Positions 6,385-62,563 of a DNA stretch of 64,000 nt are shown one piece after another. A program made the translations under genes and the position numbers. The notes under the pieces are model-generated. The model did no database searches, was not told the DNA's origin, and saw only the letters and a program-made list of their open reading frames with translations. Positions within the stretch are counted from its first letter, which is position 1; each line of letters opens with the position of its first letter. Source of the DNA: an uncultured Actinomycetota bacterium (lineage in GTDB: Bacteria; Actinomycetota; Acidimicrobiia; Spongiisociales; UBA4744); assembly GCA_963707435.1 (NCBI GenBank), contig CAVPPF010000005.1:70832-134831 (forward strand), read 5' to 3'.

Positions 6385-7542
6385 CTACCCCATGCCGACG
6401 CGCTGGGAACGCTGCAACGACTTGCCCTCGGTCTGCAGCGACGGGGCAATCATCACTTCGGCCTTCTGAAACTCTTTGACGTCTGCGTAGCCGGTGGTTG
6501 CCATCGACATCCGCAAGCCGCCGAAGAGGTTCCGCCGGCCGTCGTTCTCGTGCGCCGGACCGACCAGGATCTCCTCGAGCGTGCCGAGATCACCCACCTC
6601 GACGCGAGTTCCCCGCGGCAGGGTCGGGTGGAAAGTTGCCATGCCCCAATGAACTCCGCGGCCGGGAGCCTCGGTCGCCGCCGCCAGCGGTGATCCGACC
6701 ATGACGGCATCGGCACCGCAGGCAATAGCTTTGGCAACGTCACCGCCCGTGCGCATGCCACCGTCGGCGATGACGTGCACGTACCGGCCGGTCTCGTCGA
6801 GATACCGGATCCGCGCTCCGGCGGCGTCGGCAATGGCCGTTGCCTGAGGAACCCCCACCCCGAGCACGGCGCGAGTCGTGCAGGCGGCGCCCGGACCCAC
6901 ACCGACGAGGACGCCAACGGCCCCGGTCCGCATCAGGTGGAGGGCGGTCGAGTAGGAGGCACAACCTCCCACGATCACGGGCAGTTCAAACCCGGAAATG
7001 AACTCCTTGAGGTTGAGCGGCTCCGCCCGGGTCGATACGTGCTCGGCCGAGACAACCGTGCCCTGCACGACCAGGATGTCGAGGCCGGCCTTCACCGTGA
7101 GCGGGGCAAGGGACGCAGTTCGCTGCGGCGTCAGACTGCCTGCAACAACAACACCGCTCTCCTTGATCTCTCCGATTCGCCGTTCGATCAATCCTTCTTT
7201 GACGGGCTCCAGGTAGATCTCCTGCATGCGCAGGGTGGCCTTGTCCGCAGGGAGTTCCGCTATCTCCTCGAAGTAGGGCTCCGGGTTCTCGTACCGGGTC
7301 CAGAGCCCTTCCAGGTTGAGCACACCCAGACCACCCAGCTTCCCGATCGCAATCGCCGTTGCCGGGCTGATGGCCGAGTCCATGGCGGAACCCAGCATGG
7401 GCAGGCGAAACCGGAAGGCGTCCATCTGCCATGCAATGTCAACATCGTCGGGATCGCGCGTCCGCCGGCTGGGAACGATGGCGATATCGTCGAAGCCGAA
7501 TGCCTGGCGACCCGACTTGCCGATGCCGATGTCAATTTCCAT
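6385..7542 (-). CDS. guaB3: IMP dehydrogenase-family protein (GuaB3-like, no CBS pair)
   Basis: 385 aa TIM-barrel IMPDH/GMPR-family sequence (GGCASYSTALHL, IADGGMRTGGDVAKA). It lies immediately upstream of guaA, as in mycobacteria. Confidence 0.8.
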   Translation of the reverse strand: MEIDIGIGKSGRQAFGFDDIAIVPSRRTRDPDDVDIAWQMDAFRFRLPMLGSAMDSAISPATAIAIGKLGGLGVLNLEGLWTRYENPEPYFEEIAELPADKATLRMQEIYLEPVKEGLIERRIGEIKESGVVVAGSLTPQRTASLAPLTVKAGLDILVVQGTVVSAEHVSTRAEPLNLKEFISGFELPVIVGGCASYSTALHLMRTGAVGVLVGVGPGAACTTRAVLGVGVPQATAIADAAGARIRYLDETGRYVHVIADGGMRTGGDVAKAIACGADAVMVGSPLAAATEAPGRGVHWGMATFHPTLPRGTRVEVGDLGTLEEILVGPAHENDGRRNLFGGLRMSMATTGYADVKEFQKAEVMIAPSLQTEGKSLQRSQRVGMG

Positions 7543-7600
7543 CAGAATCCTCCGCCAATCAGGAAACCCTCACGGTAGCTCGCCCAGCTCGCAGTGCTAA

Positions 7601-7645
7601 GTCGTCAGACATCAGTTTTCGGTTGTCAGCTATCAATCATCAGAG
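7601..7645. repeat. Heptamer-periodic array (NTCAGNN)x6 in the guaB3 upstream spacer
   Basis: gtcagac atcagtt ttcggtt gtcagct atcaatc atcagag shows 7-nt periodicity. Confidence 0.5.
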
Positions 7646-7720
7646 TCGAACGCCGATTTGCGGGCTGCACAAGCCACACCGACACCTGCGAACGAAGCGC
7701 GAAGCTACGGAAGACTGAAA

Positions 7721-7775
7721 ACTCGAGTACCGAGTACCGAGTACCGAATACTGAGTACTGAATACTGAGTACTCT
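7721..7775. repeat. Tandem heptamer repeat (GAGTACY)x7; contains repeated AGTACT/GGTACC palindromes
   Basis: actcgagtac cgagtac cgagtac cgaatac tgagtac tgaatac tgagtac tc. It ends 8 nt before the CPBP start codon. Confidence 0.9.
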
Positions 7776-7783
7776 TCTCTCCC

Positions 7784-8545
7784 GTGAACCTGCCACCGCT
7801 CTCCGCCCCGCCATCGCATCGCTGGCGTTTCAGCGACTTCCTGTTCGTCTGGTTGGCCGGGTTCGTCGCATCCCTGATAGGCACCGCCGTCGGGATCGCC
7901 CTCGGTATGGGAGGGTCGCTCGAGGACCTGGCAGTCAGCGTTCCGCCCGAGTTGTTGTTCTGGGTAGCCCTCCCTGCCCAGTTCTTCGGGATGTTGCTGG
8001 CCCTGGCCTGGGTGAGTCAGCGGCGCGGATCGGGCAGTTTCGCAACGGATTTCGGATTCTCGATCCGGGTGCAGGACATCGGGTTCCTGTTCCTCGGCAT
8101 GCTGCTGCTTCTGGTCCTGGCGTTCGCGTTGACGCCGCTGGCAGAGCTGTTCGGAGTCGACGAAACCCCTCAAGTAACGACCGAGGCCATCGCCCAGGTC
8201 GTGGATCTCCCGACCCAACTCATGATCGTGCTGGCGGTGGCGATTGTCACGCCGATCGTTGAAGAGTTGACGTTTCGCGGTTTGCTCCTCCGCTTTCTGG
8301 AGGAACGGATGAACCCCCGGCGGGCCCTCGTGATCTCAGCAGTGCTCTTCGGGGCGTTCCACGTGCTGGGGACGAGCGGAACGGCCGGAGCCATCATCGC
8401 CATGGTGCAGACGTTTCTGGCCGGGCTGGTTCTGGCGTACGTGACCCAGAAGTCGGGCAAGCTGAGCCGCGCCATCTTCGTCCACGCCGGCTTCAATCTG
8501 ATCACGATTCTCGTGCTCTTCTTCGTCCCGGATCTGGGGATCTGA
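7784..8545 (+). CDS. CPBP-family intramembrane metalloprotease (CAAX protease / Abi)
   Basis: 253 aa, multi-TM. Conserved EELTFRG and FGAFHV motifs. Confidence 0.8.
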   Translation: MNLPPLSAPPSHRWRFSDFLFVWLAGFVASLIGTAVGIALGMGGSLEDLAVSVPPELLFWVALPAQFFGMLLALAWVSQRRGSGSFATDFGFSIRVQDIGFLFLGMLLLLVLAFALTPLAELFGVDETPQVTTEAIAQVVDLPTQLMIVLAVAIVTPIVEELTFRGLLLRFLEERMNPRRALVISAVLFGAFHVLGTSGTAGAIIAMVQTFLAGLVLAYVTQKSGKLSRAIFVHAGFNLITILVLFFVPDLGI

Positions 8546-28363: not shown

Positions 28364-30190
28364 CTACTCGACCGTCACGCTCTTGGCCAGGTTGCGGGGC
28401 ATGTCGATGTCGTGGCCGAGTTCCTTGGCCACGTGGTAGGCAAGGAGTTGCAGCGGGATAATCGACAGGACCGGGCTGAGGAAATCGACGGTGCGCGGAA
28501 TGCGCAGCACATGGTCGGCGTACTTGGCAACCGCAATGTCGTCCTCGTAGGCAACGGCCACCACGCTGGCACCGCGGGCCTTCACCTCCTGCAAACCGGA
28601 GATCGTTTTGTCGTAGAGATGCGACTGCGTCAGCACGACGACGACCGGCGTACCTTCCGTGATCAAGGCCAGGGTCCCATGCTTCAGCTCCCCGGCGGGC
28701 ATCGCCTCCGAGTGCATGTAGGAGATCTCCTTCAGCTTCAAGGAACCCTCGGTCGCCACGGCATAGTCCAGGCCCCGCCCGATGAAGTAGATATCGTCGA
28801 TTCCGGCTATCCGGCGGGCGATATCGGCTATATCGGCATCCATATCCAGTACCCGCTTTGCTTTCCCGGGCAGACTCCGGAGCTCAGCGGAGAGTTCGGC
28901 CGCCTGCTCAGCAGCAATCGTTCCCCGATCGACGCCCAGACGGAGCGCGAGAAGGTAGGTGCCGATCAACATCGCCGTGTACGCCTTGGTGGAGGCGACC
29001 GCTATCTCCGGACCGGCGCGGGTGTAGAGGATGTCTGCGGCATCACGGCTGAGCGTGCTACCCACCACGTTGGTGATGGCCAGCATGCGGGACCCGAGCT
29101 CTGTTGCGAGACGGGCGGCGGCCAGCGTATCGGCCGTCTCGCCGGACTGACTGATCGCGATCGTCATGGTGCCGGGGAGAATCAACGGATCCCGGTAGCG
29201 CAACTCGTGTGCGTAGTCGATCTCGATCGGGATCCGCAATGCCTTCTCGAGCACATCACGACCGACCAGGCCGGCGTGGTAGGCCGTCCCGCACGCCGTT
29301 ATCCAGATCTTCTCGAGATTCGCCACAAATCCGTCCGGGAAATCGACTCCCTCGAGCACAACGGAGCCGTCCGGCTGCAAACGTCCTCGCAGTGTCTCTT
29401 CGATCACGTCTGGCTGCTCGTAGATCTCTTTCAGCATGAAGTGCGGGTACCCGCCCTTTTCCGCCTGACCGGCGTCCCAGGTCACCTCCATGGGGGCGCG
29501 CTCAACCGGCGTTCCATCGATGGTCTGTACCGTCGCTCCGTCCACGGTGATATCGACCATCTCACCGTCCTCGATCACAAGGACGGAGCGGGTGTAGGGA
29601 AGGATCGCCGGGATGTCGGAAGCCAGGAAGGTCTCCCCCTCACCGAACCCGACGACCAGAGGGCTGATCATCCGGGCGGCGACAATCCGCCCCGGCTCGC
29701 GAGAACTCATGACCACGACCGCATATGCCCCCGTCGCCCGGCCGATAGCCCGGCGGACCGCCTCGAGAAGGTCCCCGTCGTACTCATCGGCCACGAGGTG
29801 CACCAGCACTTCCGTATCGGTATCGGAAAGGAAGCGGTGACCGGCTTCGATCAGAGCTTCTTTGAGCGGGAGGAAGTTCTCGATGATCCCGTTGTGAACG
29901 AGCACGAAATCCCCGGACGGGTCGGTATGCGGGTGAGCGTTCACATCGTTGGGTACCCCGTGGGTAGCCCACCGGGTGTGTCCGATACCGGCCGTTCCGC
30001 CGATCGGTCGGTGCTCGAGCAGTTCGTCGAGACGCTGCATCTTCCCGGCCGCTTTGCGCACCTCAATGCGACCGTTGTCGGCGATCGCGATTCCTGCTGA
30101 GTCGTATCCCCGGTACTCGAGTCGCCGCAGGGACGAAACGAGCAGGTCCTGGGCGTCGCGCGAACCGACGTAACCCACTATGCCGCACAT
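28364..30190 (-). CDS. glmS: Glutamine--fructose-6-phosphate aminotransferase (isomerizing)
   Basis: MCGIVGYVG... with tandem SIS domains, ending VTVE. Start ATG 30190. Confidence 0.96.
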   Translation of the reverse strand: MCGIVGYVGSRDAQDLLVSSLRRLEYRGYDSAGIAIADNGRIEVRKAAGKMQRLDELLEHRPIGGTAGIGHTRWATHGVPNDVNAHPHTDPSGDFVLVHNGIIENFLPLKEALIEAGHRFLSDTDTEVLVHLVADEYDGDLLEAVRRAIGRATGAYAVVVMSSREPGRIVAARMISPLVVGFGEGETFLASDIPAILPYTRSVLVIEDGEMVDITVDGATVQTIDGTPVERAPMEVTWDAGQAEKGGYPHFMLKEIYEQPDVIEETLRGRLQPDGSVVLEGVDFPDGFVANLEKIWITACGTAYHAGLVGRDVLEKALRIPIEIDYAHELRYRDPLILPGTMTIAISQSGETADTLAAARLATELGSRMLAITNVVGSTLSRDAADILYTRAGPEIAVASTKAYTAMLIGTYLLALRLGVDRGTIAAEQAAELSAELRSLPGKAKRVLDMDADIADIARRIAGIDDIYFIGRGLDYAVATEGSLKLKEISYMHSEAMPAGELKHGTLALITEGTPVVVVLTQSHLYDKTISGLQEVKARGASVVAVAYEDDIAVAKYADHVLRIPRTVDFLSPVLSIIPLQLLAYHVAKELGHDIDMPRNLAKSVTVE

Positions 30191-30231
30191 GGCAGTCTCC
30201 TTTGCCTGGTGATGGAGACCGGAAGGAACTA

Positions 30232-30406
30232 CGGGTCCGCGTACGGTCCCGTCCACTCCGATGTGGCCTCTGTCACCGGGGTCACCCCCGGGCTTTGCTC
30301 CACACCGTCACGACCGTGGTCGCCGAGAGGGCATCCGCCGAAACTCGATACTCCCTCTTCCTCGTCACCCGCACCGCCTGTAAAGGGGCGCGGGCCGGGC
30401 GCTGCT
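30232..30406 (-). ncRNA. glmS ribozyme: glmS ribozyme (GlcN6P-activated self-cleaving riboswitch) in the glmS 5' UTR
   Basis: The minus-strand transcript reads ...AGCGCCCGG...GGGUGACGAGGAAGAGGGAGUAUCGAGUUUCGGCGGAUGCCCUCUCGGC...AAGCCCGGGGGUGACCCCGG. This matches the conserved core GACGAGGA-GGAG-UAUCGA-UUUCGGCGGAUGCC-UC-CGGC and the P4 stem of the glmS ribozyme family. Confidence 0.85.
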
Positions 30407-30509
30407 TGATGTGTCCGTTCCCGGTCACTTTGTCCAGCGAAGACTAGCGCTGCACGTGACGTTCACAACCGTGAATGCTCTGCGGCGGCCGGCGGGTCGA
30501 CTTCCCCGG

Positions 30510-40084: not shown

Positions 40085-40150
40085 ACACGTACTACGTACC
40101 TCGTACCTCGTACCTGGTACCCACGACGAAGCACGGAATACGAAGTACGT
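40085..40150. repeat. Heptamer-periodic array (NNNGTAC)x about 9 in the adk-secY spacer
   Basis: cacgtac tacgtac ctcgtac ctcgtac ctggtac ccacgac gaagcac ggaatac gaagtac. Confidence 0.85.
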
Positions 40151-41488: not shown

Positions 41489-41491
41489 TGA

Positions 41492-41596
41492 CTCTCAGTT
41501 CTCAGTTGTACGTTCTTCGTTCTCGTTCTTCAATCTCGGTTTCAGCTACCGGTAGCAGGCTACTGAGTACTGAGTACTGGATACTAAGTACACCTA
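41492..41596. repeat. Heptamer-periodic array in the secY-rplO spacer: (TCTCAGT-like)x8 then (TACTGAG)x4
   Basis: ctctcagt tctcagt tgtacgt tcttcgt tctcgtt cttcaat ctcggtt ... ctactgag tactgag tactgga tactaag tacacc tactcg. Confidence 0.85.
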
Positions 41597-42070: not shown

Positions 42071-42109
42071 TACTCGTACTGAATACTGAGTACTGAGTAC
42101 TGAGTACTA
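42071..42109. repeat. Tandem heptamer repeat (TACTGAR)x5 in the rplO-rpmD spacer, running into the rpmD stop codon
   Basis: tactcg tactgaa tactgag tactgag tactgag tactac. The last unit supplies the rpmD stop (CTA on plus = TAG). Confidence 0.9.
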
Positions 42110-42298
42110 CTTCGTCTTCTCTTCCACCTTGACCAGGTGGGCAACTTTGTGGAGCATGCCTCGAACATCGGGAGTGTCCTGATGTTCGACCGTCTGCTGC
42201 ATCCGGCGCAAGCCGAGGCTGCGCACGGTAGCCCGCGTCTTGGGCTTTTGACCGATGATGCTCTTGACGAGCGTTACGGTGAGGGTCTTGTCGGCCAT
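42107..42298 (-). CDS. rpmD: 50S ribosomal protein L30
   Basis: 63 aa. [20 protein letters not shown]... Confidence 0.93.
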
Positions 42299-46067: not shown

Positions 46068-46477
46068 GTTTCCTCCCGCGTCACAAACTTGGTCTTGATG
46101 GGAAGCTTGTGTCCGGCGCGGCGCATCGCTTCGCGAGCCATGTCCTCCGGTACTCCGGACAGCTCGAACATGACCCGTCCCGGCTTCACCACTGCAACCC
46201 AGAACTCCGGGTTGCCCTTGCCGGAACCCATGCGCGTCTCGGCGGGTTTCTGAGTGACCGGTTTGTCGGGGAAGATGGTTATCCAAACCTTCCCGCCACG
46301 CTTGACGGTTCTCGTGATCGCCACGCGAGCGGATTCGATCTGTCGAGCCGTGATCCAGCCCTCTTCCAGAGCCTTGATCCCGTACTCGCCGAAGGAGACC
46401 CTGGTTCCGCCTTTGGCATTGCCACGCCGGCGACCCCGGTGCATCTTCCGGTACTTGGTTCGTTTTGGCATGAGCAT
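46064..46477 (-). CDS. rplP: 50S ribosomal protein L16
   Basis: 137 aa. [11 protein letters not shown]... Confidence 0.97.
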
Positions 46478-47637
46478 TAGGCATCACCGCCCTTGCCGTT
46501 CGACGGGTCGGCCGCGCCATCCTCAACCGCAGCTTCTTCAGCGGCATCGGCGGCAACCGGTTCCTCGGTCGCTTCGGTTACGGCCGGCTCGGCGATGGTC
46601 CCGGCAGCCACGACCTCTTTGGTCTCTACGTCGGCGGTGGGCTCCTCGACGAGTTCGTCGGGAGCGCCGGCAACCGGGCCGTCGACCTCTACGATCTCTT
46701 CGAAATCCTCGGCCGCAATGTCCGGTGCGCCTACTTCATCGACCGCTACCGTCTCGACCTCATCCTCGTACTCGCTCTTCGCCAGTTCGGGAGCAATCCG
46801 CTTGCCGCCCCCCGCCTCGATGAGGCGCTTGCCGTCTCGCTTGCCGCCACCGGCTTCGATGAGGCGCTTGCCGCCGCCGGCTTCGATCACCTTGGAACCC
46901 CGCTCGCCTCCCACGGCGTGCTCGGCTCGTGCCTTGGCAGGCGCCACGCGGCCCGGTGCACCGGAGGCGAGGGCAGCCTCAGCGGCAACTTTCTCGCGGG
47001 TGACCTTCAACGAGGTGACGACGTCGCCCTTGTAGACCCAAACCTTGATCCCGATGGCACCGACGGTGGTGCGAGCGGTGGCAGTCCCGAAATCGATGTC
47101 GGCCCGCAACGTATGCAACGGTACGCGACCTTCGCGGTACCACTCACGACGGCCCATGTCGGAACCGCCCAGGCGGCCGTTGGACTCGACGCGAACTCCT
47201 TCCGCTCCCGCTTTCATGGCAGTGGCAACTGCTCGTTTCATGGCGCGACGGAACGAGACGCGGTTCTCGAGTTGATCTGCGATGCCGCGAGCCAGCAGCT
47301 GCGCATCGGTCTCCGGATCCCGAACCTCGATGATGTTGAGCTTCACCCGGCGGCCGCTGAGTTTCTCCAGCCCGGCGCGGAGCCGATCGGCCTCCGACCC
47401 TTTCCGTCCGATGACGACACCCGGGCGGGCGGTGTGGATCTCGACGACGACTTTGTCGCGGGTTCGCTCGATCTCGATACGGGACACGGCGCCGCGGGTC
47501 AGCTCCTTCTGGAGATAGTCGCGGATCTGCCAGTCTTCATTGACGAGCTCTGTGTATTCCTTGTCGCTGTACCAGCGGGACTTCCAGTCCGTCACTATCC
47601 CGAGACGGAATACGTACGGGTGTACTTTCTGGCCCAT
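46477..47637 (-). CDS. rpsC: 30S ribosomal protein S3 with a long acidic C-terminal extension of about 150 aa carrying three LIEAGGGKR repeats
   Basis: 386 aa. Canonical S3 through about residue 230, then [32 protein letters not shown] and a Glu/Ala/Val/Asp-rich tail. Confidence 0.95.
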
Positions 47638-49141: not shown

Positions 49142-49149
49142 AACAAGTC

Positions 49150-49226
49150 CTCAGTTATCAGTTCACAGTTCTCAGTACCAGCCAAGCCGTCTGCCGACGA
49201 CCGATAACTGACAACTGATAACTCGC
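49150..49226. repeat. Inverted repeat built from CAGTTAT-type heptamers in the rplB-rplW spacer; predicted long RNA hairpin
   Basis: tcagttatcagttcacagttctcagta...N25...cgataactgacaactgataactcg. The 11-bp core AGTTATCAGTT is mirrored by AACTGATAACT. Confidence 0.75.
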
Positions 49227-50962: not shown

Positions 50963-51273
50963 AGCTTGATCTCCACTTCTACACCGGCGGGAAGGTCGAG
51001 ACGCATGAGCGAGTCAACCGTCTTGGGAGTCGGCTCGAGTATGTCGATGAGCCGCTTGTGGATGCGCATCTCGAAGTGCTCCCGCGAGTCCTTGTCGACA
51101 TGGGGCGATCGGATGACGCAGTAGCGGTGAATCTCCGTTGGGAGCGGCACCGGGCCCTTGATCTTCGCCTGGGTGCGCACCACCGTCTCGGCGATTTTCC
51201 GCGCGGACTCGTCGACCACTTCGTGGTCGTAAGCCTTCAGTCTGATGCGGATCTTCTGTCCTTGGTCTGCCAT
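50959..51273 (-). CDS. rpsJ: 30S ribosomal protein S10
   Basis: 104 aa. Confidence 0.97.
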
Positions 51274-51281
51274 GTTCGCTC

Positions 51282-51336
51282 AACTCTGTTTCGTTCACGT
51301 ACTCAGTACTGAGTACTAGGTACTGGGTACTCGGTA

Positions 51337-51339
<3 letters not shown>
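51282..51339. repeat. Heptamer-periodic array (CTNNGTA)x about 8 in the tuf-rpsJ spacer, overlapping the tuf stop codon
   Basis: caactct gtttcgt tcacgta ctcagta ctgagta ctaggta ctgggta ctcggta ctag. The final GGTACTAG supplies the tuf stop TAG. Confidence 0.9.
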
Positions 51340-52527
<1,188 letters not shown>

Positions 52528-54660: not shown

Positions 54661-54698
54661 CTCTTCCTCAGTCGCTATGCGGTTGTCAGGCGGTCGTA

Positions 54699-55166
54699 CT
54701 ACCAGCGGTAGTGGGCAAAAGCCTTGTTTGATTCGGCCATCTTGTGGATGTCTTCGCGGCGCTTCACGGCGGAGCCGGTATTGTTGCTCGCATCGAGAAT
54801 CTCGTTGGCCAATCGCTCGGCCATGGCGTTTTCCTTGCGCTTGCGAGCGAAGTTGACCAACCAGCGGATCGCCAGCGAGTTGGCACGGCGGGGTCGAACA
54901 TCCACCGGCACCTGGTAGGACGAACCGCCGACCCGGCGAGAACGAACCTCAACTTGCGGCCGGATGTTGTCCACGGCTCGCTTCAGCACCGTGAGAGGAT
55001 CCTGGCCGACGCGTCGTTCCACGATCTCGAGAGCGCCGTACACGATCGACCGGGCGGTCTCTTTCTTGCCGTCGAGCAGGACCTTGTTGATGATCTGGCT
55101 GACCAGAAGGCTCCGGTAGACGGGATCCGGGTCGATGTGCCTTTTTGGCGCAGGTCCACGTCGCAT
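54699..55166 (-). CDS. rpsG: 30S ribosomal protein S7
   Basis: 155 aa. Confidence 0.97.
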
Positions 55167-55537
55167 TACGACTCCCTCTTCGTTCCGTAGCGGGAACGTG
55201 CTTGCCGGCGGCCCGATACCGCCGCAGCATCGAGCGTGCCGCGAATGACCTTGTAGCGAACTCCCGGCAGATCCTTCACCCGGCCACCACGGACCAGAAC
55301 GATGGAGTGCTCCTGGAGGTTGTGCCCTTCACCGGGGATGTAGGCGGTGACCTCAACCCCGGAGGAGAGACGAATACGCGCTACCTTGCGCAAGGCCGAG
55401 TTGGGCTTCTTGGGCGTCACGGTATAGACACGGGTACAAACCCCGCGTCGCTGCGGCGCCCCGGCCAGACCGGGCGTCTTTTCCTTCTTGGGCTTCGGCT
55501 TCCGACCCTGACGGATCAGCTGCTGAACGGTCGGCAC
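55166..55537 (-). CDS. rpsL: 30S ribosomal protein S12
   Basis: 123 aa. [12 protein letters not shown]... Confidence 0.97.
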
Positions 55538-55753
55538 AGACCCTTCTCTCTTCTCTTCGGCACACCCCGACCCAAATGTGGGAACGGGTATTTACAGACG
55601 GAACAGCGCGTTCGCCGGGGCGAAAGCACCGATCCAGCCACTTCATCGCCCACAGGCCGCCGTGGCGACCTCAGGACACGCGGAAACGTGGCGGGAAAAC
55701 CGAGACGGAAGTATATGCGCGACCGGGAGATGTTGCAAAAGGCGCACTTGGGG

Positions 55754-55820
55754 CGTACTCGGTACTCAGTACTAGGTACTAGGTACTAGGTACTAGGTAC
55801 TCGGTACTCGGTACTTACTA
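55754..55820. repeat. Tandem heptamer repeat (GTACTNG)x about 10: GGTACTA x4 flanked by GGTACTC units
   Basis: cgtactc ggtactc agtacta ggtacta ggtacta ggtacta ggtactc ggtactc ggtactt actacc. It ends 12 nt before the start codon of the plus-strand gene at 55833 and lies about 220 nt upstream of rpsL. Confidence 0.9.
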
Positions 55821-55832
55821 CCCTCGCGTCCG

Positions 55833-56453
55833 ATGTTCATCACCGTTCCCCGCCCCGAGCTGCGCAGGCGGCTCCCTCAACTGATGATCGGTCTCGTCGT
55901 CGTTGGTGTTGGGTTTGCCTTGATGGTCGAATCCGACCTGGGCCTCGGCCCGTGGGAGGTCCTCCACCAGGGGATTTCGAATCGAGTCGGCATCCCCATC
56001 GGGACGGTCGGCATCTTCGTCGGGTTGCTCGTGCTGGGCGCCTGGATTCCCTTGCGCCAGCGACTGGGGGTCGGCACGGTGCTCAACGTCATCACCATCG
56101 GCATCGTGATCGATCTCACGATGCTGGCCATTCCTGATCTGAGCTCTCTCCTGATCCGCGGGCCGGCGCTGCTCGGTGGCTTGCTCCTGGTCGGAATCGG
56201 AGGAGGCCTCTATATCGGGGCGGGCCTGGGACCCGGCCCCCGGGACGGACTGATGACCGGCATGGCCGCTCGGGGCTGGTTCTCGATTCGGACCGCCCGC
56301 ACGCTCCTCGAGGTCACCGCGTTGACCGCCGGGTGGTTGCTGGGTGGAACCGTCGGCGTCGGCACCCTTCTCTTCGCCGGAGGGATCGGTCCGCTCGTGC
56401 AGATGTTCCTGGGCAGGCTGGCGATCGGCGAAAACATCTCTGTTCCGCCCTGA
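55833..56453 (+). CDS. YczE/YitT-family (DUF161-like) integral membrane protein
   Basis: 206 aa. Gly-rich TM helices with the GLGPWEVL motif. Confidence 0.6.
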   Translation: MFITVPRPELRRRLPQLMIGLVVVGVGFALMVESDLGLGPWEVLHQGISNRVGIPIGTVGIFVGLLVLGAWIPLRQRLGVGTVLNVITIGIVIDLTMLAIPDLSSLLIRGPALLGGLLLVGIGGGLYIGAGLGPGPRDGLMTGMAARGWFSIRTARTLLEVTALTAGWLLGGTVGVGTLLFAGGIGPLVQMFLGRLAIGENISVPP

Positions 56454-56524
56454 ACCATCAGGGAAGCCCTCCAAGCAGTCGCCGGCTACGTCCCACCAAC
56501 GTCGCGGATCCTGGATTCGAAGAT

Positions 56525-57532
56525 CTATCCTGAATATGCGTCGACCTTGGTAATGAACTCGGCCTTCTCTGCATCCGAGAGCCACGTGGCGAGGAATGAG
56601 TTCCTGGCCAACTGAGTTATCTGGCTCTTTGTGAATCCTCCGGTCTCGACCAATTCGAAGAGATTCTCGTTTAGGTAGGCCTGCATGTAAGACGGGTCAT
56701 CGGAATTGATCATCACCCGCATGCCCCTATCGAGCATGGTCTTGATTTCATCGACAGTCAGGCTCCCGGTGACGTATCGATTCGAGACAGGACATACCGT
56801 CAAGGCAAGCCCGCGCGCGTTGATCTCCTCGATGAGTGCCTCGTCCTCAAGGGAGTTCACACCATGGTCGATCCGTTCAACGCCGATCTCATCAAGGGCT
56901 TGCCAGATGTGTTGAATTGAATCGTCTTGGTTCACGTCGCAGTGCATCGTGAGCCGGTATCCCTCTTGACGAGCACGAGCAAAGACCTCCTTGAATTTCG
57001 TAGGGGGATTGCCTCGTTCGTCGGAATCAAGCCCTACCCCAATAATCCACTCCTTGAATGGCAGGGAGGCTTCGAGAGTCTCCATCGCCGACTCGGCCGA
57101 CATATCGCGGAAGAAGCACATGATGAGCTGGGTCCTGACGCCAAGCTTGCTCTCGGCATCTACCTGTGCACGATGGATTCCGGTGACGATAGCTTCGAAA
57201 GGAACGCCCCTCGAGGTGTGCGCCTGGGGATCGAAGAACGGCTCGGCGTAGAGGATGTTCTGTTCGTGAGCCTTGCGGAAGTAGGCCATGGCCAGATCGT
57301 AGAAATCCTGTTCCTTCAGCAAGACCTTCATGCCGTCGTAGTACCCAACGAGAAACGACGTCAGATCGTGGAAGACGTAGCTCGCCTTGACATCTTCAAC
57401 GGTCTCGAAAGGGATCTCCACACCATTGCGCTCGGCCAACTCGAACCTGAGTTCAGGCTCGAGGGTACCCTCCAAATGAAGATGGAGCTCAGCTTTTGGC
57501 AGTCCTTCAACGAACGATCTCATGTCGGTCAC
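56525..57532 (-). CDS. add: Adenosine deaminase
   Basis: 335 aa. LPKAELHLHLEGTL... with HxH and ...MHCDVN...SDDP metal ligands. Lower GC than the neighbouring genes. Confidence 0.92.
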   Translation of the reverse strand: MTDMRSFVEGLPKAELHLHLEGTLEPELRFELAERNGVEIPFETVEDVKASYVFHDLTSFLVGYYDGMKVLLKEQDFYDLAMAYFRKAHEQNILYAEPFFDPQAHTSRGVPFEAIVTGIHRAQVDAESKLGVRTQLIMCFFRDMSAESAMETLEASLPFKEWIIGVGLDSDERGNPPTKFKEVFARARQEGYRLTMHCDVNQDDSIQHIWQALDEIGVERIDHGVNSLEDEALIEEINARGLALTVCPVSNRYVTGSLTVDEIKTMLDRGMRVMINSDDPSYMQAYLNENLFELVETGGFTKSQITQLARNSFLATWLSDAEKAEFITKVDAYSG

Positions 57533-60550: not shown

Positions 60551-61599
60551 AGTTCTTCCGGCCGGTCATCCGTTTGGTTGTGCCCATTTTCGGGGCATTC
60601 GTATTTGCAGTTCTCCTCTTGGTGCTGGTCGGCGAATCGCCTGGAGAAGCCCTCAAAGCACTGGTGGGAGGAGCGCTGGGAAGTCCGGCCCGCATCGGCG
60701 ACACCATTACCGCCTGGACGACGTTGTCGCTGGCAGCAGCCGGCCTTGCCGTCACCTTCACAGCCGGTCTATGGAACATCGGCGTCGAAGGCCAGATGAT
60801 CGCCGGAGCTATCGCCGCATCATTCGTAGCCCGGGAAGTCGACGCCCCCCGTGCGATCATGATCCTGCTCATACTCCTAGCCGGATTCGCTGGAGGCGCA
60901 ATATGGGCAGCGCTGGCCGGTTTGTTGAAGGTCAGAGGCAAAGTCAACGAGATATTCGGGGGTCTCGGCCTGACTTTCGTGGCGATCAGCCTTTCCACCT
61001 ACCTGATCATTGGGCCGTGGCAAAGAGCGGGGGCTGCTTCCACCGGGGGAACCGACCCATTTCCCGATAACGCATGGCTCCCGACCCTGGGAGATCTCAG
61101 AGTGTCGCTAGTTTCGATCATTGTGACGGTGCTGGCGCTCGTCATCGTCTACGTCCTACTTCGCGGAACCCGTTTTGGGCTTCGACTGAAGGCAGTTGGA
61201 CAGAACCTCCAGAGTTCTGCCCTATTCGGCATAGCAAATACCCGGTATCTCCTTACGGCATTCGCGCTCGGTGGAGGCCTTGCGGGTATCGCCGGTGCGT
61301 TCCGTGTGACAGGCTTCTATCACAAGCTCGTACCGGGGCCAGGCGGAGGTCACGGGTACCTCGGCATCCTCATCGTCCTCTTGGCAGCCTACAAAGCCAA
61401 ATGGATCGCACCCCTGGCGTTCTTCTTCGCCATAGTGGCCGTCGGCGCATCCCAGCTGCCTCTTCAGCTGGGACTTGACGCTTCGGTGGGCGGCATTCTG
61501 CGGAGCGTTCTGGTCCTGTTCGTGCTCCTCGCCGGTGGATGGCAGGCCCGTAGAAGCACAAAAGCGGGAGCAACAACGAGCAAGGAGGCATCAGCGTGA
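60547..61599 (+). CDS. ABC transporter permease (BMP-type)
   Basis: 350 aa, multi-TM. 4-bp overlap with the ATPase gene. Confidence 0.88.
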   Translation: MKFFRPVIRLVVPIFGAFVFAVLLLVLVGESPGEALKALVGGALGSPARIGDTITAWTTLSLAAAGLAVTFTAGLWNIGVEGQMIAGAIAASFVAREVDAPRAIMILLILLAGFAGGAIWAALAGLLKVRGKVNEIFGGLGLTFVAISLSTYLIIGPWQRAGAASTGGTDPFPDNAWLPTLGDLRVSLVSIIVTVLALVIVYVLLRGTRFGLRLKAVGQNLQSSALFGIANTRYLLTAFALGGGLAGIAGAFRVTGFYHKLVPGPGGGHGYLGILIVLLAAYKAKWIAPLAFFFAIVAVGASQLPLQLGLDASVGGILRSVLVLFVLLAGGWQARRSTKAGATTSKEASA

Positions 61600-62534
61600 A
61601 CGAGCTGGGTTCACTCATTGCTGCGGCAGCTCCTCTCGTGTTCGCAGTTGTCGGCGAGACCATCACCGAAAAAGCCGGCATCATCAACCTGTCCTTGGAA
61701 GGCAGCCTGATGCTGGCTGCGATGACCGGCTTCGCTGTATCGTTCGAAACCAACAGCCTCCTCCTGGGATTCCTCGCCGCTGCCATTGTTGGGATGCTGG
61801 TTGCGTTGCTCGTCGCTTTCTCCAGCATTTCCCTCAAGCTCAACCAGGTCGCCGTTGGATTTGTGCTGTTCCAGTTGTGCACTGACCTGAGCACGTTCCT
61901 TGGTCAGGCTTACGTTCGAATCCCGGGACCTTCGGTGCAAGCCCTCCCCATTCCACTGCTCGAAGATATCCCAATATTGGGCCCGCTGGTATTCGATCAA
62001 AACCTGGTTGTGTATGCCAGTTTCGTCGTAGTTATCGCGGCCTACTACTTCATGTTCCGCACACGGCCGGGCCTCGAGCTACAGGGCGTAGGTGAGCGGC
62101 CCGAAGCCGCACACGCCCGAGGCATTCCCGTCAATCGTCTCCGCTATCTGTATACGGCAATCGGAGGATCCCTGATTGGTGTGGCCGGAGCTTCTTACTC
62201 ACTAGCCGTCAAGCTCGGTTGGTCTTTTCAACACACGAGAAACCTCGGCTGGATTGCACTTGCCATCGTTATTTTCGGAGGGTGGCAACCCATCCGAGCG
62301 GCGGCCGGGGCCTATCTCTTTGCAGGACTGCTAACCCTGGCTCAACTGCTCCAGGAGTCCTTGCCGGGGATCGCCCAAATCCTTCCCACCATTCCGTTCC
62401 CGCTCATGATCTTCACTCTCGTCATTGTGTACAGCGATTGGCTGCGGAATTTGACCGACAGGTTCCCAGCCCTACGAACAGTATTTGCAAGCGAACCCCC
62501 CACCGCCATCGGCACAGTGTTCGAGGCGGACTGA
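61596..62534 (+). CDS. ABC transporter permease (BMP-type)
   Basis: 312 aa, multi-TM. 4-bp overlap with the previous permease. Confidence 0.88.
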   Translation: MNELGSLIAAAAPLVFAVVGETITEKAGIINLSLEGSLMLAAMTGFAVSFETNSLLLGFLAAAIVGMLVALLVAFSSISLKLNQVAVGFVLFQLCTDLSTFLGQAYVRIPGPSVQALPIPLLEDIPILGPLVFDQNLVVYASFVVVIAAYYFMFRTRPGLELQGVGERPEAAHARGIPVNRLRYLYTAIGGSLIGVAGASYSLAVKLGWSFQHTRNLGWIALAIVIFGGWQPIRAAAGAYLFAGLLTLAQLLQESLPGIAQILPTIPFPLMIFTLVIVYSDWLRNLTDRFPALRTVFASEPPTAIGTVFEAD

Positions 62535-62549
62535 GTACTCAGTACTCAG
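62531..62549. repeat. Short heptamer repeat (ACTGAGT/ACTCAGT) overlapping the permease stop codon
   Basis: ctgagtactcagtactcagg. The TGA stop lies inside the first unit. Confidence 0.7.
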
Positions 62550-62563
62550 GACCTGGCACTTCG

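Follow-up and report, generated by a model that had tools for sequence, protein, structure and literature searches.

The heptamer arrays that touch gene ends in this stretch of DNA, a chromosome segment of 64,000 nucleotides with about 62% G+C (hereafter, the window), are best regarded as heptanucleotide simple-sequence repeats that have proliferated in one Acidimicrobiia-like lineage, with their overlap of stop codons as a by-product, a reading to which we give a probability of about 0.7. They form a new lineage of known, poorly understood heptameric repeats, such as the STRR of cyanobacteria, the GGGAATC repeats of Xanthomonas and the TAACTGA repeats of Beggiatoaceae. A first-pass annotation of the window had claimed that repeat units supply the stop codons of three upstream genes: tuf, rpmD and the gene of an ABC permease. 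The overlap itself is exact, each stop lying in register within the first unit of an array (TAG 51339..51337 in tuf, TAG 42109..42107 in rpmD and TGA 62532-62534 in the permease gene). As an account of where these stops come from, the claim fails, since the stops predate the arrays and their positions have not moved among orthologues. The more interesting question is posed by the hairpins of paired arrays rather than by the stop overlap.

Heptamer arrays in and around a ribosomal-protein operon

The str/S10/spc ribosomal-protein operon occupies the minus strand of the window, with rpsL (55166-55537), tuf, rpsJ, rplB, rpmD, rplO and secY, then adk and map, and an L2-centred search of 185,579 species genomes gave uncultured Acidimicrobiia MAGs as the best matches, at 75-81% identity. 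Tandem Repeats Finder detects period-7 arrays at about ten places in the 64 kb, with 2.9-8.7 copies each. They are far above chance expectation, as illustrated by GTACTNNGTACT, which occurs 24 times in the window versus none in 100 shuffles. The commonest unit on the mRNA strand is NAGTACY, that is, the palindrome AGTACT plus one variable base. Elsewhere, the rplW-rplB spacer combines CAGTTAT and GAACTGA, the secY-adk spacer combines CGTACTT and AGGTACG, and ACTGA-type units stand ahead of secY and in the 5′ region of an IMPDH-like gene. All of these arrays are in spacers, whether within the operon, between divergent genes or between convergent genes. As in other heptamer simple-sequence repeats, 7-nt units follow each other head to tail in at least three copies and beyond chance length, they occupy non-coding positions at many loci per genome, and their copy number and sequence differ among related genomes at one and the same locus. 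An assembly artefact was dismissed because the arrays recur in independent short-read and long-read assemblies. The main features are the following:

51298..51339, minus strand: tuf array, six units in the 5′ part of the tuf-rpsJ spacer, TAGTACC GAGTACC CAGTACC TAGTACT CAGTACT GAGTACG
51274..51297, minus strand: non-repeat rpsJ leader, TGAACGAAACAGAGTTGAGCGAAC, then ATG; related to the CGAACGAGCGAAGCGAGTGAGC leader conserved in relatives
42075..42109, minus strand: rpmD array, five units in the 45-nt rpmD-rplO spacer, TAGTACT CAGTACT CAGTACT CAGTATT CAGTACG, preceded by the codon AAG
62528..62552, plus strand: permease array, three units between convergent genes, GGAC TGAGTAC TCAGTAC TCAGGAC
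41559..41596, minus strand: rplO stop (TAG 41596..41594) and its array, TAG then GTGTACT TAGTATC CAGTACT CAGTACT CAGTAGC
41489..41531, minus strand: purine-rich ACTGA-type heptamers before the secY ATG (41488), GAAGAAC ... GTACAAC TGAGAAC TGAGAGTCA
40087..40149, minus strand: inverted array pair of the secY-adk spacer, 5′ arm of CGTACTT type (40149..40122) and 3′ arm of AGGTACG type (40121..40087)
49142..49224, minus strand: inverted array pair of the rplW-rplB spacer, 5′ arm 49224..49197 (GAGTTAT CAGTTGT CAGTTAT CGGTCGT) and 3′ arm 49178..49151 (GTACTGA GAACTGT GAACTGA TAACTGA, then GGACTTGTT with a GAGGA ribosome-binding site)
55755..55815, strand unassigned: 8.7 GTACTNG units flanked by two divergent genes, rpsL (minus) and a DUF6198 gene (55833-56453, plus), ending 17 nt before the plus-strand ATG
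7714..7773, plus strand: about seven units GAGTACC / GAATACT / GAGTACT, with the array end 10 nt upstream of the GTG that starts a CAAX-protease-like gene (7784-8545)

Pfam identifies the products of the three genes with overlapped stops as EF-Tu (tuf, 51337-52527, minus), L30 (rpmD, 42107-42298, minus) and BPD_transp_2 (the permease, 61596-62534, plus). The tuf gene ends AAA ATC ATC GCC TAG, with a second in-frame TAG 21 nt downstream of the stop; the rpmD array runs into a Shine-Dalgarno-like AAGGGA ahead of the rplO ATG (42061); and the permease gene ends GAC TGA, with the units TGAGTAC TCAGTAC TCAGGAC at 62532-62552, in an array that forms an 8-bp palindrome. The rplO gene is a fourth, near case, where the TAG lies within AGTAG, one base off the register of the following NAGTAYY array. 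From the window alone, the stop overlap is not significant, as it is seen in three of the six arrays with an upstream gene end versus 1.3 expected under uniform placement in the spacer (P ~0.10), and any argument that the arrays are flush by constraint therefore rests on the relatives. The arrays at 7714-7773 and 55755-55815 abut start codons and touch no stop codon.

Several other elements occur in these surroundings. The IMPDH-like gene (6385-7542, minus) has in its 5′ region a degenerate CAGTTNT / CTGAYNA array (7590-7640), distinct from the one at 7714-7773. The rpsG-fusA spacer (54661-54698, minus) carries no array and reads TAG TACGACC ... GACTGAGGAAGAG ATG; its one TAGTAC unit at the stop and its ACTGAGG at the ribosome-binding site are motifs repeated elsewhere, and such single motifs could be array seeds. 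A promoter-like TTGCAA-17-TATACT (55738..55710, minus) stands just downstream of the 55755-55815 array, on the rpsL side. An open reading frame at 55818-56585 (minus), whose TAG adjoins the same array, was dismissed as an additional case of stop overlap; we consider it spurious because it has no Pfam match and an antisense-type composition, and the opposite strand encodes the DUF6198 membrane protein, which is conserved in relatives. Ribosomal protein S3 (46477-47637, minus) is unusually long, with 386 aa in the window and 377-412 aa in most relatives with intact gene calls, and its C-terminal extension holds a 39-nt tandem repeat (46799-46873).

Stop positions and unit turnover among relatives

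According to the first-pass annotation, an identical stop position in orthologues lacking the repeats, with unrelated flanking sequence, would refute its claim, and this is what the aligned 3′ ends gave for tuf, rpmD and the permease gene. EF-Tu stops at residue 396 (..TKI[IL]K/A) in about 30 orthologues, with arrays present or absent, most of them reading TAG and then unrelated downstream sequence; tuf genes without these repeats, with the same stop position and an unrelated flank, were found in L201, L210 and more than 20 other Acidimicrobiia. A finer series consisted of 20 contigs encoding an identical S10 or L14 protein, with 80-87% nucleotide identity; an exact-sequence look-up of the window L30 returned no record, and L14 served in its place to reach relatives. 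At tuf-rpsJ, an AGTACY array of 5-6 units with point differences lies flush with the TAG in the window and in L203, L205, L207, L208 and L209, whereas the same place holds TAG TCACGAG TCACGAG.. plus an inverted CTCGAGA array in L204, a TAA, a small hairpin and then a CAGTTAT/AACTGAG pair in L201 and L202, and a TAG, a GC hairpin and then a GCTATCC/GGACAGC pair in L210. At rpmD-rplO, L213 has the homologous TAG without an array and a 17-nt spacer (AAG TAG tcggactgagggacacc ATG), L214, L215 and L218-L220 have TAG TACTCAG in 4-5 copies, an array as in the window, and L211, L216 and L217 have other units. The L30 protein is 63 aa long in the window (..VEEKTK) versus 62 aa in relatives (..VEEKK), and the extra residue comes from an in-frame ACG codon (KTK vs KK), not from the array. 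Among the matches listed, the permease measures 312 aa in 34 orthologues at 77-95% identity and in two more distant ones; the nearest (95% identity) reads GAC TAA and then unrelated sequence, and others GAG TAG. In the relatives L221-L230, all with 312 aa, a TAA or TAG is followed by unrelated sequence, except for the syntenic L228, which reads GAC TGA, a GC hairpin and then a GTACTGA array.

On the evidence of these alignments, the stops of tuf, rpmD and the permease gene are ancestral: the repeats neither made nor shifted them, and a pre-existing stop serves as the first unit of the array or as its boundary. The suggestion that repeats had expanded up to or into the 3′ ends of genes can be kept in its first half, and is to be abandoned in its second for these three genes, where array-less orthologues have the same stop positions. 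A genuine case of expansion into a gene does exist in L202, where a CAGTTNT array in the dispensable acidic tail of L4 leads to ..RRQFSVISCQF plus a new TGA, with the old ..EAEGDES end left out of frame; in the relatives, arrays within coding sequence are limited to this tail (L202, L206 and L210). The two versions of the tail in L201 (7610-7720) and L202 (7610-7700) differ completely over about 100 nt between flanks that are 100% identical, the L202 version having the heptamer array and premature TGA, and 247 aa versus 264 aa, within a range of 223-277 aa for L4 across the clade. As a separate observation, positions 499-1753 of L203 match window positions 51270-52527, that is tuf and the tuf-rpsJ spacer, at 95-100% identity, whereas the adjacent genes rpsJ to rpsQ reach only 80-88%; L203 either carries a tract exchanged by recombination or is a chimeric metagenome contig.

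The long spacers themselves are a property of one clade. In other Acidimicrobiia they are minimal, with rplW-rplB spacers of about 1-20 nt in most of some 76 other loci, rpmD and rplO abutting or overlapping, and tuf-rpsJ spacers of 5-40 nt; about 70 more distant actinobacterial loci have almost no arrays. Spacers of 45-140 nt are found only in the clade of the window (window, L001, L002, L005 and L201-L220), where the extra length consists of heptamer arrays. The rplW-rplB spacer measures 67-138 nt in the window, L001, L002 and L005 and 118-135 nt in L201-L210; across relatives, tuf-rpsJ takes 57-125 nt, with 5-6 AGTACY units or with quite different units, and rpmD-rplO 17-81 nt. In the clade, arrays lie flush with the stop on one side and with the conserved leader or ribosome-binding region of the next gene on the other; in the tuf-rpsJ spacer of the window and relatives, they always stand between the tuf stop and the rpsJ leader. 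The overlap with the stop recurs in relatives with other units, as in tuf of L005 (TGA GTACTTAGTACC), L008 (TAG GCACCAGGCACC) and L204 (TAG TCACGAGTCACG), in rplB of L001 (TGA GTCACCAGTCACC), and also at rpmD of L217 and L211.

A single spacer may hold different units in species with identical S10 or L14 proteins (80-87% nucleotide identity). Three distinct tuf arrays start in the same TAG (AGTACC, AGTCACG and AGGCACC), and so do at least three distinct rpmD arrays (TACTCAG, TAGCCAG and CCAGTCA), and the stop-to-GTAC register is one base apart between the window (TA-GTAC) and L005 (TGA-GTAC). The copy number is fairly stable, at 4-6 units, across species about 85% identical at the nucleotide level, which would not be expected of a neutral repeat that slips freely, and the near-identical contig pairs L205/L208, L215/L219 and L218/L220 have the same arrays within each pair. 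Judging from this comparison, the arrays are clade-specific, and their units change from species to species.

This turnover bears on the alternative left by the first-pass annotation, where the stop context would be part of a functional element coupled to ribosome release. The idea found no support: the register is shifted in L005, units differ by species, the folding of the three stop-overlapping arrays is weak (z −1.0 to −2.3), and there are no compensatory changes. In a more explicit version, a terminating ribosome, release factors or an RNA-binding protein that forms oligomers would recognise the NAG-N4 periodicity, with one of UAG, CAG or GAG recurring at 7-nt intervals, and termination or re-initiation would be tuned as a result. 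HutP binds UAG triplets spaced by 4 nt, and this protein, or the S1/Csp/CsrA-type proteins proposed for TAACTGA repeats, would be candidate binders by analogy. Units that follow TAG stops have a common beginning, (N)AGT (AGTACC, AGTCAC, AGTTAT), tuf has its second in-frame TAG, and ACTGA-type units directly precede start codons, as TAACTGA does in Beggiatoaceae ribosomal-protein operons, all of which would suit such a reader. However, close species have unrelated units at one spacer (CCAGCCG, GCTATCC, AGGCACC, AGACGGC), both array orientations occur, the rpmD array has no further stop triplets, no binding protein was identified from the window, and the stop-to-GTAC register of L005 is one base off that of the window. 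We regard this version as highly improbable.

Growth of the repeats within spacers, which is the reading we favour, could proceed as follows. Units of 7 nt would arise by local tandem duplication or replication slippage, of which slippage is our conjecture, and arrays would survive only outside coding sequence because a 7-nt unit shifts the reading frame. In a tight ribosomal-protein operon, the free room would be reduced to the few bases between a stop codon and the next ribosome-binding region; arrays arising there may stretch a spacer of about 1-20 nt to 45-140 nt, bounded by the stop and the ribosome-binding region, and they would touch both because they fill the room between these. A tandem duplication can include the stop codon since its first copy still ends the protein, and the stop would thus become the first in-register unit (TAG-TACC, TAG-TCAC, T-AGGCACC, TGA-GTAC), with later copies drifting freely to CAG or GAG. 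A duplication of this kind would account for different arrays that start in the same TAG and for the register shift of one base between the window and L005. As the stops are ancestral, their overlap with arrays would follow as a by-product. Moreover, we infer that the operon would tolerate only arrays that fold back, either through self-complementary AGUACU units or as paired inverted arrays, which would keep the stop and the next start close in the folded mRNA.

Alternatively, the array hairpins could be mobile or copy-pasted modules (MITE-, REP- or REPIN-like, or spread by gene conversion) that insert beside stops instead of growing in place. The same pairs do appear at different loci. The secY-adk pair of the window, CGTACTT/AGGTACG, occupies rplW-rplB in L206, L207 and L209, and the rplW-rplB pair of the window, CAGTTAT/AACTGAG, occupies tuf-rpsJ in L201 and L202. 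Each genome also has its preferred few units, which recur at numerous loci (AGTACT for the window, GACGG/CCGTC for L005), and the L4 tails of L201 and L202 differ by a whole cassette of about 100 nt. Nonetheless, the 64-kb window has no terminal inverted repeats, target-site duplications, transposase, shared loop or shared flank, one position (T vs C) consistently sets one arm of a pair apart from the other, as expected if they were homogenised separately, and L205, L207, L209 and the window differ in copy number and at single positions in a way that resembles evolution in place. We take insertion of ready-made modules to be a very improbable source.

Paired arrays and the folding of the spacers

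The strongest folds belong to inverted array pairs. The secY-adk spacer is predicted to form an mRNA hairpin of −50 kcal/mol (z −3.6) versus −38 for the antisense strand, and the rplW-rplB spacer one of −44 kcal/mol (z −4.4) versus −24, the antisense strands being weaker owing to the G.U pairs between the arms of the mRNA. The latter hairpin has the GAGGA ribosome-binding site of rplB in its 3′ arm. Across the clade, the sense strand is the more stable one in 28 of 41 spacers (Wilcoxon P = 0.04, from data that are not independent). The rplW-rplB fold lies between −42 and −65 kcal/mol in nearly all clade members (about −20 in L005, which has a single array), and persists across at least five different unit pairs. 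An inverted-complement partner is present within 120 nt for 38 of 67 clade arrays, with matched copy numbers, and a direct partner for 10 of 67, near chance (~9% per comparison). The stable copy number, the inverted partners and the sense-strand G.U stability would therefore call for selection on structure or for a concerted generating mechanism, beyond plain slippage. We also calculated where the hairpin bases fall with respect to stop and start codons; these positions are not counted as evidence, because folding an excised spacer alone biases its ends towards pairing.

These data could fit a reading where the arrays are selected RNA modules, with hairpins that bridge the distance between a stop and the following ribosome-binding site. 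Such hairpins might couple translation through RNA unfolding, be processed by RNase III or protect against 3′ exonucleases, and the stop would stand at the stem base by design. The two strong hairpins with their much weaker antisense strands, the sense-strand preference in the clade, the persistence of the rplW-rplB fold through unit replacement, the excess of inverted over direct partners with matched arms and the enclosed rplB ribosome-binding site all agree with it, and for long-spacer gene pairs, rpmI-rplT among them, coupling by RNA unfolding is an established mechanism (PMC12548453). On the other hand, the tuf, rpmD and permease arrays, where the stop is overlapped, are the weakest folders, with no strand asymmetry. 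A consensus fold of five AGTACY tuf-rpsJ spacers gave no informative covariation (term +0.6) and no compensatory changes. Array-less relatives cope with spacers of 1-20 nt, arrays occur outside operons too (7714-7773 and 55755-55815), and a structure directly after the stop codon has been reported to lower coupling (PMC12548453). No array matches an Rfam 15 family at gathering thresholds. No intrinsic terminator (a GC-rich stem-loop plus T run) coincides with an array, with 16 sites in the window versus 12.8 expected, and a promoter and terminator scan of the window found no above-chance association with arrays. All considered, we judge it rather unlikely that the arrays as a whole are modules of this kind.

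Rfam gave a single match for the window, a full-length glmS ribozyme (RF00234, 90 bits) at 30250-30414 on the minus strand, upstream of a glmS-like gene (28364-30256).

For the repeats that we take to have grown within spacers, arrays that fold away may be tolerated or selected within the operon, and the hairpins may have an RNA-structural role. A narrower proposal, to which we likewise give a minor share of our belief, is that the paired inverted arrays are undescribed cis-acting intercistronic mRNA hairpins, where position, arm balance and sense-strand G.U stability would be under selection while the unit is replaced repeatedly. If that were true, inverted-pair hairpins would fold long spacers away and bring stop and next start together, so that coupling is preserved, or would provide processing sites in the ribosomal-protein operon, and replacement of the unit would possibly go through a genome-specific copying mechanism.

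Known repeats and the meaning of the new lineage

The arrays share some traits with tandem and palindromic elements of other bacteria. MIRU units measure about 46-100 bp and carry small coupling ORFs, unlike the units of 7 nt without ORF found here. These elements, which Supply et al. reportedly described in 1997, are actinobacterial tandem repeats in the spacers of polycistronic operons that overlap the flanking stop and start codons, and the location in operon spacers and the overlap of stop codons are common to both. Enterobacterial REP/BIME sequences are likewise intergenic palindromic elements of operon spacers that form mRNA hairpins, which are predicted ones in our case. REPs are conserved palindromes of about 35 nt spread by RAYT transposases, and how far they lie from the stop codon can affect translation: Liang, Rudd and Deutscher are said to have found in 2015 that ribosomes stall when a REP lies no more than 15 nt from a stop codon. 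The elements of the window differ from them in being tandem heptamers, not conserved palindromes of about 35 nt.

Closer relationships are found among heptamers, which according to Mrazek (2007), as quoted in PMC4679880 and PMC4692102, are the commonest long simple-sequence repeat in bacteria and are ascribed to polymerase slippage. In Xanthomonas, GGGAATC arrays lie near or overlap stop codons and form 70-75 inverted pairs (Rehm et al. 2015, PMC4692102). Like the cyanobacterial STRR and the GGGAATC/GGGGAYT repeats of Xanthomonas and Nostoc (PMC4692102), ours are head-to-tail arrays of 7 nt in 3-10 copies, almost wholly intergenic and present at many loci, near or over the stop of the upstream gene, frequently in convergent pairs, and kept in position among related species while length and sequence vary. 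They differ in their host, an uncultured Acidimicrobiia-like clade, in having several unit families per genome and spacers whose unit is replaced between species, and in their concentration in the str/S10/spc operon, where they create spacers absent in other Acidimicrobiia. In addition, unlike the GGGAATC type, the units AGTACY, CAGTTAT/AACTGAG and CGTACTT/AGGTACG are not G-rich, and therefore have no quadruplex potential.

Direct TAACTGA repeats are described from marine Beggiatoaceae, cyanobacteria and Bacteroidetes, and those of Beggiatoaceae precede start codons in ribosomal-protein operons (MacGregor 2015, PMC4679880). The window holds members of the same sequence family, CAACTGA GAACTGA before the secY ATG and GTACTGA GAACTGT GAACTGA TAACTGA before the rplB ATG (compare PMC4679880). 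Their placement is also the same, a few bases from start codons inside ribosomal-protein operons, as the ACTGA-type arrays leave 9 nt to the ATG of rplB and about 9 nt to that of secY. In both systems the forward orientation carries stop triplets, which limits the overlap with coding ends, to at most 18 nt for forward TAACTGA repeats (PMC4679880). The unit itself departs from that family, which has 2-6 direct copies, as there is one exact TAACTGA among GTACTGA, GAACTGT, GAACTGA, TAACTGA and CAACTGA. Moreover, the ACTGA arrays here are usually the 3′ arm of a hairpin, whereas those of Beggiatoaceae are essentially all direct and without predicted structure, and Actinomycetota are not among the reported taxa (PMC4679880). 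Our literature searches found no paper on heptamer repeats in Acidimicrobiia.

Unrelated metagenome contigs scanned for three GTACT units yielded 120 loci with 26-69% G+C. In the high-GC loci, with crude gene calls, the distance between array and gene end is at most 10 nt in 45 of 116 pairs, and in 13 the array touches or overlaps the stop; among the examples are arrays that follow HslU, MreB and an ATP-synthase subunit at their natural ends. As a side observation, four unrelated environmental contigs (L113, L127, L097 and L181) carry 6-20 heptamer arrays each, of many units and often in inverted pairs, and heptamer-rich genomes therefore seem widespread beyond the taxa in the literature.

For the annotation of this clade, a stop codon within a repeat should be taken as the true ancestral stop, and the spacers of 50-140 nt in the ribosomal-protein operon as repeat arrays, and not as missed genes or promoters. 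In terms of genome evolution, the most conserved operon of bacteria has been inflated by 7-nt repeats in one lineage. A clade where the unit is turned over at about 85% identity thus offers a compact natural series on why heptamers proliferate, a question that dates from 2007, and the same series bears on whether the array hairpins are tolerated junk or selected RNA structure.
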